DNA from: an uncultured delta proteobacterium
GTDB lineage: Bacteria > Desulfobacterota > Binatia > UBA9968
Assembly: GCA_963771465.1 (NCBI GenBank)
Contig: CAVYTU010000014.1
Location: 800,001 to 864,000 of the forward strand
Direction: 5' to 3'
DNA: 64,000 bases
Below the pieces are notes generated by a model. That model did not search any database, was not told the origin of the DNA, and worked only from the letters and a program-made list of their open reading frames with translations. The position numbers and the translations under genes were made by a program. Of this stretch, positions 44,868 to 46,531 are shown one piece after another. Positions within the stretch are counted from its first letter, which is position 1, and each line of letters begins with the position of its first letter.

Positions 44868-44884
44868 CGCGTCGCCCGGACGCG
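44868..44884 (-). promoter_or_regulatory. putative bacterial SECIS element
   Basis: CGCGUC-CGGGC-GACGCG hairpin; the loop begins 20 nt after the in-frame UGA of selO. Confidence 0.7.
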
Positions 44885-44888
44885 TTAA

Positions 44889-46385
44889 TCAGGTACCTCA
44901 GAAAGTTCGGTAATGACCGTACCCTTCAGGCGGAGGTTCGGTAAAGGCGGCAAACTCGGGCTGATCGTCGAACGGGCGCGATAGGATATTCAGCAGCGTT
45001 TCGAAAGGCGCGTAGTCGTCGCGTTCCACCGCAGCACTCAAGGCTTCCTCTACTCGATGGTTGCGCGGAATGAACGCCGGATTAACACGCCGCATCGCTT
45101 GTGCGCGCGCCAAAGGCGCCACCGCCTCGCGTGCAAGCCGCGCGCGCCAGTGTCCACTCCAGAGATCGTAGGCAGACGGATCGGCAAACAGGGCGCGAAT
45201 CGGTTCCTCGTTGCCTAAGGCCGCATCGGCGAGGTAACGGAAAGCCAACGTGTAGTCAACTTTCTTTCCCGCCATCGCGGTGAGAAACCCCGTGGCGAGG
45301 TTGAGATCGGCCTCGTCCTCGCTGACCAGTCCGAGCTTGGCGCGCATGCCTTTTAGCCAGTGGCGTTCGTATTGTTCTGTAAAGGCGTTGATCACCTCAG
45401 TGGCGCGTACGATGGCGCGTTTTTCATCAGCATCGATCAGCGGTAAAAGCGTCTCCGCCAGCCGCGCAAGATTCCACTGCGCGATGTTGGGCTGATTGGC
45501 GTAGGCGTAGCGACCCCGAGTGTCGATGGAGCTGAAGACGGTTGCCGGATCATAATGATCCATGAAGGCGCATGGGCCGTAGTCGATGGTCTCACCGGAG
45601 ATCGCCATATTGTCGGTGTTCATCACGCCATGGATGAAGCCCACATGCATCCAGCTGGCAATGAGCGCCGCTTGCCTTTCGCACACGCGCTCGAGCAATC
45701 CGAGGTACGGATTCGCATGGCCCTTTAGCTCCGGATAGTGACGATCGATTACGTAATCGGCCAGGCGACGCACCTTGGCCGGCTCACCGCGGGCGGCGAA
45801 TAATTGGAAGGTGCCGACACGGATGTGGCTGGCAGCAACGCGGGTCAAAACCGCGCCCGGTAGCGCGCCCTCGCGATAGACGGGCTCGCCCGTGACCACT
45901 GCGGCAAGCGCCCGGGTCGTCGGGATACCAAGCGCGTGCATCGCTTCGCCGATCAAGTATTCACGCAACACGGGCCCGAGTGCCGCCCGGCCGTCGCCAG
46001 CGCGCGAAAATGGCGTGGGACCCGAGCCTTTGAGCTGAATGTCACGACGACGTCCGTTGCGGTCGATCACCTCGCCCAGGAGCAGCGCCCGCCCGTCGCC
46101 AAGTTGGGGCGCGAAGCCGCCGAACTGGTGGCCGGCGTACGCTTGAGCCAGCGGCAGCGCTCCCTCGGGTGTCTGATTGCCGGCAAAGATTCTCGCGCCT
46201 TCCGCGGAATCGAGAGCCGTGGCATCCAGTCCCAATTCTTCAGCCAACTCAATGTTGAGCTTGACCAATCTAGGCTGCGCCACTTGCGCCGCCTTCCAGG
46301 GCACGTAGAAGCCCTCAAGTTCGCGCGCATAGGTATTGTCGAAGGCGAATCGCGCGGCGGCAGGGTTGTTCGGGACGTGCGTCAT
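44889..46385 (-). CDS. selO: protein adenylyltransferase SelO/YdiU, predicted Sec at antepenultimate residue (TGA 44900-44898)
   Basis: Motifs [31 protein letters not shown]. The 3' end reads TAC CGA ACT TTC TGA GGT ACC TGA = YRTF-U-GT*. Confidence 0.9.
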
Positions 46386-46531
46386 CGGGTGACTTCCTTG
46401 GTCGGGGCGATTAATGAATCCTCGTGCTATCATTCTTCTCGATATCGAAAGAAATATCTACACCTGTTCCAAAGAGTGTCCTTGGTTTTCAATACGCTTT
46501 GCGGGTTATGCTTTCGTAAACAAATCGACGG

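Follow-up and report, generated by a model that had tools for sequence, protein, structure and literature searches.

Comparative evidence for a probable C-terminal selenocysteine in a SelO-family protein from a Binatia-like soil lineage

Introduction

When two UGA codons stand in frame only 9 nucleotides (nt) apart at the end of a bacterial gene, can the first be read as selenocysteine (Sec) and the second as the stop? This question is raised by selO (YdiU) in a 64,000-nt stretch of DNA (hereafter the window) from an uncultured delta proteobacterium assigned to the Binatia (contig CAVYTU010000014.1 of assembly GCA_963771465.1, positions 800,001–864,000). The gene ends TAC CGA ACT TTC TGA GGT ACC TGA, followed by TTAA, and a hairpin with a stem of 6 base pairs (bp) and a 5-nt loop begins 4 nt past the second TGA. 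These features are exactly as given in a preliminary description of the window, which had proposed that the first UGA encodes Sec, that the second is the true stop, and that a Sec insertion sequence (SECIS) lying entirely in the 3′ untranslated region (UTR) acts on the first UGA because of its spacing. Comparison with relatives indicates that the first UGA is very probably the Sec codon and the second the true stop, and we consider it highly likely that selO encodes a 498-residue selenoprotein ending in Y-R-T-F-Sec-G-T.

Comparison of selO 3′ ends

The selO coding sequence occupies positions 44892–46385 of the window on the minus strand, on which all selO features given below also lie, and comprises 498 codons including the proposed Sec codon. 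Its product is a predicted protein adenylyltransferase of the TF(C/U)GT C-terminal type. The first TGA (UGA-1, 44898–44900) is codon 496 and aligns with the TGC or TGT (Cys) codon of all Cys-form relatives. The next two codons, GGT ACC (Gly497-Thr498, 44892–44897), require recoding of the first TGA for their translation. The second TGA (UGA-2, 44889–44891), the proposed true stop, lies 10 nt from the loop of the hairpin. The hairpin itself, the proposed bacterial SECIS, is 17 nt long (44868–44884), with the stem CGCGUC/GACGCG (44879–44884 paired with 44868–44873) and the loop CGGGC (44874–44878), and is directly followed by ATATTTTCA. Its position is wholly 3′ of the stop codon, as the preliminary description had placed it.

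The closest relatives of this selO (79–92% identity) are metagenome-assembled genomes (MAGs) labelled Candidatus Binatia or “uncultured delta proteobacterium”. The order was sampled with 123 species-level genomes, 48 of which have selO; the 3′ end was readable in 44 of the 48, and G476, which holds an N-terminal piece only, was left out. Codon 496 is TGA in 25 of these 44 genomes and TGC in 19. Pooling the order genomes with the named loci gave 26 distinct tails with TGA and 21 with TGC. All 26 TGA tails continue with GGN ACN TGA, the second TGA being in frame in every one, and the hairpin follows 3–5 nt later in all of them. Among the tails collected first, a perfect stem of 5 bp or more was present in 17 of 18 TGA forms, the 18th having a U-A pair changed to U-G, and in none of 15 TGC forms. 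Among the further tails, the hairpin was present in 8/8 TGA forms, which read GGN ACC after the TGA, and was intact in 0/6 TGC forms, so that no intact hairpin was found in any of the 21 distinct TGC tails. Several TGC forms carry decayed remnants of it (for example ACGAGTCAGGG.GACGC) with a common stem-breaking change. The alignment of homologous 3′ ends, which the preliminary description had suggested as a check, therefore revealed an exchange of TGA with a Cys codon, with the Gly-Thr codons and the hairpin kept in the TGA relatives; it is this exchange, the conserved GGN ACN TGA and the tie between hairpin and TGA that make the Sec assignment of the first UGA very probable.

Conservation was compared as mean pairwise identity among 18 distinct TGA forms, with four-fold sites taken from 10 full-length forms. 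For the Gly and Thr codons that follow the TGA, identity was 100% at positions 1–2 and 60.1% at the wobble positions, the four-fold sites of the selO gene giving 62.8%. This codon-like pattern, with positions 1–2 fixed and the wobble free, indicates that the Gly and Thr codons are translated. The hairpin core (16 columns) showed 96.4% identity, the next 12 columns past the hairpin 44.7% and the sequence further downstream 29.3%, which indicates selection on the sequence of the hairpin; outside the hairpin, the sequence after the second TGA is not conserved. Any of the four letters is found at base 5 of the loop; elsewhere in the loop a single kind of change occurs, G to U, which the G(G/U) of the consensus model described below permits.

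The true stop is TGA in 26/26 Sec-form tails, and in the Cys-form tails it is TGA in 16, TAA in 3 and TAG in 2. The uniform second UGA of the Sec forms may be inherited from a common ancestor, or else the element may include this UGA together with the bases that follow it.

Each of the 62 loci more distant from this selO, among them loci of Burkholderiales, Rhizobium and Hoeflea, has a TFCGT-type end encoded with TGC or TGT. A phylum sample of 401 genomes, 23 of them with SelO at E ≤ 1e-50, yielded 19 3′ ends, none with TGA at the position of codon 496; 10 end in TFCGT, 8 in SCSS and one in neither. In the set of 150 representatives of the nearest 50%-identity clusters, no sequence ends at the position of the TGA, although such representatives may favour longer Cys forms and absence is not shown by this count; 131 of the 150 end in x-C-G-T. 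The TFCGT and CSS endings that the preliminary description had attributed to bacterial SelO are thus both borne out by these sets.

Selenocysteine machinery and authenticity of the TGA

The genome encodes the machinery needed to decode Sec. A tRNA-Sec was found at 76.7 bits, above its curated cut-off, and is called SeC(tca) by ARAGORN, and such cut-offs were also passed by selA (614.1 bits), selB (358.6 bits) and selD (376.3 bits). The latter three adjoin one another on the window's own contig, approximately 600 kb away (G000:C14:197319-201637). With this, all of selA, selB, selC and selD, which the preliminary description had listed for checking, are present. In-frame TGA codons occur at canonical sites of two other genes, selD (KAAG-UGA-AAKL) and the formate dehydrogenase gene fdhA (HQARL-UGA-HSS), which shows that the organism decodes Sec. 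Among 18 relatives with selO, selA was above its cut-off in 17 and selD had an in-frame TGA in 17, the match in the 18th being partial, and the Sec system is kept by both Sec-form and Cys-form genomes.

Two minor observations were made on these genes. The selD SECIS stem in relatives shows a double change of C-G to U-A (CGCGCAA.../CGTGCAA...). A second molybdopterin-oxidoreductase-like match with a TGA lies at G000:C16:85180-86043; in translation, this TGA falls early in the stretch that was matched and does not resemble a canonical Sec site.

The TGA of selO is not an assembly error, as the same TGA is found in the contigs of two other studies and in 26 distinct relatives. Positions 44868–44900 are unchanged in contigs from two other soil-metagenome studies, spanning 44760–44916/44918; these are contigs and not raw reads, which the preliminary description had named for confirming the codon.

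The hairpin and the spacing of the two UGA codons

The hairpin was compared with a consensus bacterial SECIS (bSECIS) model, which, in the legend of Fig. 2 of a 2026 review (PMC13188914), specifies a loop of 3–9 nt, a stem of 4–16 bp, a G in the first two loop positions, a distance of 16–37 nt from the UGA and a minimum free energy (MFE) of ≤ -7.5 kcal/mol. The model was applied by our own implementation with simple-hairpin energies. For UGA-1, the hairpin has a 5-nt loop, a 6-bp stem, G at loop position 2 (CGGGC), a spacing of 19 nt and an energy of -8.2 kcal/mol. From UGA-2 to the loop the distance is 10 nt, outside the range of 16–37 nt, and no qualifying hairpin was found for UGA-2. The earlier proposal that spacing decides which UGA is recoded therefore agrees with the model, and spacing can explain the choice. 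In the same genome, the distance from UGA to loop is 18 nt for the fdhA SECIS (GGUCGCC-GGUUU-GGCGGCC), close to the 19 nt of selO, and 32–33 nt for that of selD.

A model-fitting simple hairpin also follows 56 of the 1426 long TGA-ended open frames in the genome (3.9%). On the single sequence, the hairpin is weak evidence, only modestly more than chance, and support for Sec comes from the comparison with relatives instead. The hairpin was also considered as a genomic repeat and rejected as such, its core having 1 match in the 6.9-Mb genome at ≤1 mismatch.

A mechanism can be proposed from this geometry. With UGA-1 (codon 496) in the ribosomal A site, the hairpin would lie 13 nt downstream in the 3′ UTR, with its loop starting 19 nt downstream; it could there bind SelB carrying GTP and Sec-tRNA(Sec), and Sec would be inserted at UGA-1. 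Three codons on, with UGA-2 in the A site, the hairpin would be just 4 nt off and probably inside the ribosome or unwound by it. So near to UGA-2 it could not present SelB, and a release factor would terminate translation.

History of the exchange between Sec and Cys

In a quick maximum-likelihood tree, 8 Cys outgroups and two hairpin-less Cys forms lie at the base, and Sec and Cys forms are interleaved above them. One gain followed by reversions fits this arrangement, because the basal and outgroup forms have Cys and no hairpin and the nested Cys forms have broken hairpins. The Sec form would accordingly have arisen once from a Cys ancestor inside the Binatia-like soil lineage, and some branches would have gone back to Cys, with their SECIS decaying afterwards. 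Since Cys forms make up the outgroups and the basal members of the clade, the Sec in the SelO studied here is likely to have arisen independently of that in eukaryotic SELENOO.

Predicted role of residue 496

Codon 496 aligns with the C-terminal Cys of the P. syringae enzyme (6EAC). As described in the available text of a 2020 review (PMC7278666), E. coli SelO is under the control of a disulfide linking Cys272 of its activation loop with the C-terminal Cys476, and Cys476 is Sec in higher eukaryotes. By this comparison, Sec496 would replace the conserved third-from-last Cys of SelO and would most likely form a selenylsulfide that gates AMPylation. The candidate redox partner is Cys272 of the present protein, in DYGPCAFMD of the activation segment (codon at 45570–45572), a role suggested for it by its invariance in 91/91 distinct TF(C/U)GT-type sequences.

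Five residues before the Sec/Cys site, codon 491 of selO (44913–44915) is CAT, encoding His. A Cys at this -5 position occurs in 16 of the 21 distinct TGC tails, where it gives CxxxxC (compare CSMLSC of the SCSS-type SelO), versus 1 of the 26 TGA tails, which have Arg or His. In public protein clusters, it occurs in 51/61 Cys forms versus 0/58 truncated forms; the sequences are kin, and the independent-pairs test is without power.

The separate parts can be joined into one account, which we put forward tentatively and rate at slightly less than an even chance. SelO would have independently become a selenoprotein in a Binatia-like lineage of soil, at the regulatory residue that is also Sec in animals; a minimal 17-nt SECIS after a real UGA stop would recode one UGA and spare another 9 nt away purely by distance; and in lineages that reverted to Cys the SECIS would have decayed and a second Cys would usually have been gained five residues upstream (CxxxxC), suggesting that a single Sec can stand in for a pair of Cys. 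If this joint account is true, the tandem UGAs would be a natural ruler for the geometry of SelB and the ribosome.

Alternative explanations

Several observations weigh against reading UGA-1 as a Sec codon. The energy of -7.5 kcal/mol is reached in only 8 of 18 TGA forms (simple-hairpin energy), the 5-bp versions giving -5.8; the local 48-nt fold has z = -0.84, with 45 of 200 shuffles folding equally well or better; and no Rfam family matches the element, even at E up to 10. No covariation was found in the stem, in which 4/6 pairs are invariant and the covariation score was matched by 140/500 shuffles, and the outermost pair in the 18 TGA forms is C-G in 7, U-A in 2 and unpaired in 9. The covarying hairpin anticipated in the preliminary description was thus not seen; because the stem is nearly invariant, covariation is uninformative. 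A terminator scan calls the window's own hairpin terminator-like, with the tail ATATTTTCAC. The tree needs 6 Sec/Cys changes, of which well-supported branches force only 1, and the relatives are not independent: the independent-pairs tests of Sec against hairpin and of Sec against Cys at -5 have 1 pair on well-supported branches, and with 1 usable pair they are without power to reach significance. The only RNA-library (metatranscriptome) contig spans 44974–45160, short of the UGA, and may come from DNA. Finally, the position of E. coli Cys272 (FICNHSD) aligns with Phe284 here, which makes the redox partner of Sec496 a guess.

If UGA-1 were an ordinary stop, selO would encode a SelO without its last three residues, including the regulatory Cys, and the hairpin would be a terminator or an mRNA-stabilising stem. 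The terminator-like call, the unremarkable fold and the 495–496-residue product annotated in databases agree with this, and the loss of three residues might be tolerated. Yet the six bases following such a stop should drift, whereas positions 1–2 of their codons are 100% conserved and an in-frame stop follows in 26/26 tails; most relatives have an A-rich run and no T-run after the stem (for example AAAACATTCC, AAAAACGTCA and GAATGTCAGA, read from the alignment); and loss of the hairpin coincides exactly with TGC at the codon. We consider an ordinary stop very improbable on these grounds, although the hairpin may have a second role as an intrinsic terminator. Sec insertion competes with release factor 2, and selenium supply could decide between recoding and termination, so that both products are made and selO switches between a redox-gated full-length protein and an ungated truncated one. 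Recoding may be inefficient, as judged from the short and weak hairpin (-5.8 to -8.2 kcal/mol). Such a switch is unlikely but of all the alternatives the one that we take most seriously, and it overlaps the Sec assignment instead of excluding it.

The codon-like conservation after UGA-1 shows translation and not the identity of the inserted residue, and UGA-1 might be read without SelB by a near-cognate tRNA (Trp or Cys), or the organism might use TGA as a sense codon. However, 1426 long open frames of the genome end in TGA, as does selO itself, and codon 496 alternates only with Cys codons; moreover, a hairpin that fits the SECIS model and is spaced like the SECIS of the genome's own fdhA travels with the TGA, and the Sec system is complete. 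Decoding by these routes is accordingly even less credible than an ordinary stop. A sequencing or assembly error or a decaying pseudogene might be entertained for a genome in 19 contigs with an estimated contamination of 6.29%. The same TGA and hairpin are nevertheless found in 26 distinct relatives and in the contigs of two other studies, and the 498 codons are otherwise open and match the family end to end, which leaves this explanation a negligible probability. Sec at UGA-1 with termination at UGA-2 is the reading retained below.

Relation to known selenoproteins

The Sec form of bacterial SelO is not new as a family, and the gene described here is a Binatia-like member of a kind predicted in 2025. 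The preliminary description had held that bacterial SelO was not a recognised selenoprotein family, which is overtaken by two sources in the parts available to us. [quoted passage not shown] The 2020 review (PMC7278666), in its available text, gives Cys at this position in all prokaryotes. Literature searches found no paper on selenocysteine in Binatia, nor one on YdiU with selenocysteine and UGA. What the present analysis usefully adds is the wide use of the Sec form in a soil lineage, the decay of the SECIS after reversion to Cys, the Cys at -5 in Cys forms and a natural case of tandem-UGA spacing.

The D. ganghwensis SelO-like protein (COG0397/PF02696) resembles the one studied here in having a SelO domain, one in-frame TGA, Cys homologues and a SECIS-like stem-loop just downstream, and both are supported by prediction only. 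Its host belongs to a lineage other than the Binatia-like one; the two proteins were compared by text description, which, in the part available, gives no Sec position or motif. Mammalian SELENOO, a mitochondrial AMPylase of the same family, has one Sec, close to its C-terminus and at the site of the conserved bacterial Cys (PMC7278666, PMC12409994, as far as their available text goes), and on this point the preliminary description agrees with PMC7278666. Eukaryotic SELENOO has a CXXU motif, a mitochondrial targeting peptide and a eukaryotic SECIS system according to the same texts. In contrast, the tail here is Y-R-T-F-U, with Arg three residues before Sec, and the Sec forms almost always lack a Cys close by; the element, a 17-nt hairpin of bacterial type, has no match to a SECIS in Rfam.

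The E. coli and P. syringae enzymes (6III, 6K20, 9JYM and 6EAC) have the fold family and the third-from-last Cys in common with this protein, but their tail is SCSS instead of TF(C/U)GT, and here Phe284 stands in place of E. coli Cys272, the invariant Cys of DYGPC being a different one. An unrelated family, the DUF466 proteins of Campylobacter ending in Lys-Cys-Sec-COOH, likewise has Sec next to the stop (bioRxiv 10.1101/2022.07.06.499078, in the part available to us). With Sec so near the stop, any bacterial SECIS of these genes must follow the stop codon, and they offer a precedent for a SECIS lying wholly in the 3′ region.

Database records and significance

The 120 closest protein clusters divide into 61 complete Cys forms, 58 whose ...YxT(F/Y) end coincides exactly with the TGA, and a single one that stops a residue short. 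The preliminary description had expected gene callers to drop three residues, and indeed roughly half of the close relatives in public collections, 58 of the best 120 clusters, are stored three residues short; the truncated NCBI records are named [quoted passage not shown]. As a consequence of the truncation, the probable redox-switch residue of the enzyme is missing from the databases.

If the Sec assignment is true, Sec-dependent SelO would extend to an abundant uncultured soil lineage. What Sec contributes to SelO, still an open question for the mammalian enzyme, could then be asked in a bacterial setting. With their single hairpin, the two UGAs, 9 nt apart, would form a compact natural test case of how spacing governs Sec insertion versus termination. 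The interleaved Sec and Cys forms, together with the SECIS remnants, let the direction of Sec/Cys exchange be read.

Anatomy of the gene and minor observations

Translation of selO is placed at the ATG at 46385, homologue alignments opening at residues 1–10, and a Shine-Dalgarno-like AAGGAAG (46393–46399), read from the sequence, lies 7 nt before this ATG. The protein matched Pfam PF02696 with E 4.7e-120 and 401.9 bits (cut-off 22.8) over profile positions 6–464 of 466, and NCBIfam NF000658 with 588.4 bits (cut-off 431). It was below the cut-offs of the equivalog models NF045949 (450.1 vs 850) and NF040880 (430.8 vs 900). It is a member of the SelO/YdiU family and not an equivalog of the characterised E. 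coli or Pseudomonas enzymes. The solved structures named above were found at E values of about 1e-105 to 1e-108, and HGVMNTDNM of the protein aligns with these enzymes, a conservation of sequence from which AMPylation/UMPylation activity is predicted.

The neighbours of selO encode an RNase H, an amidohydrolase, an AAA ATPase, an NMT1-like binding protein, a DUF72 protein and a methyltransferase resembling cyclopropane-fatty-acid synthase. No obvious redox partner was seen in this gene neighbourhood, and the flanks are not conserved among relatives.

Some relatives showed irregular selO loci. A TGA-form selO was matched in two or three adjacent pieces in two relatives (L038/L041, G019:C13:143330-144818; G485:C14:2680-4178), which points to frameshifts or assembly errors; TGA GGT ACC TGA and the hairpin are intact in both despite the split. 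Three loci that are 83–91% identical to selO (L049, L053 and L062) are labelled Verrucomicrobiia, Pseudomonadota and Candidatus Acidiferrales, and probably represent contigs of the same lineage that were mislabelled or mis-binned. An isolated second copy of the last approximately 80 selO codons, ending in TFCGT and a stop, is present in two relatives (L042, G003:C29:435909-436154; L043, G004:C9:295134-295388), approximately 3 kb from the full gene in each.

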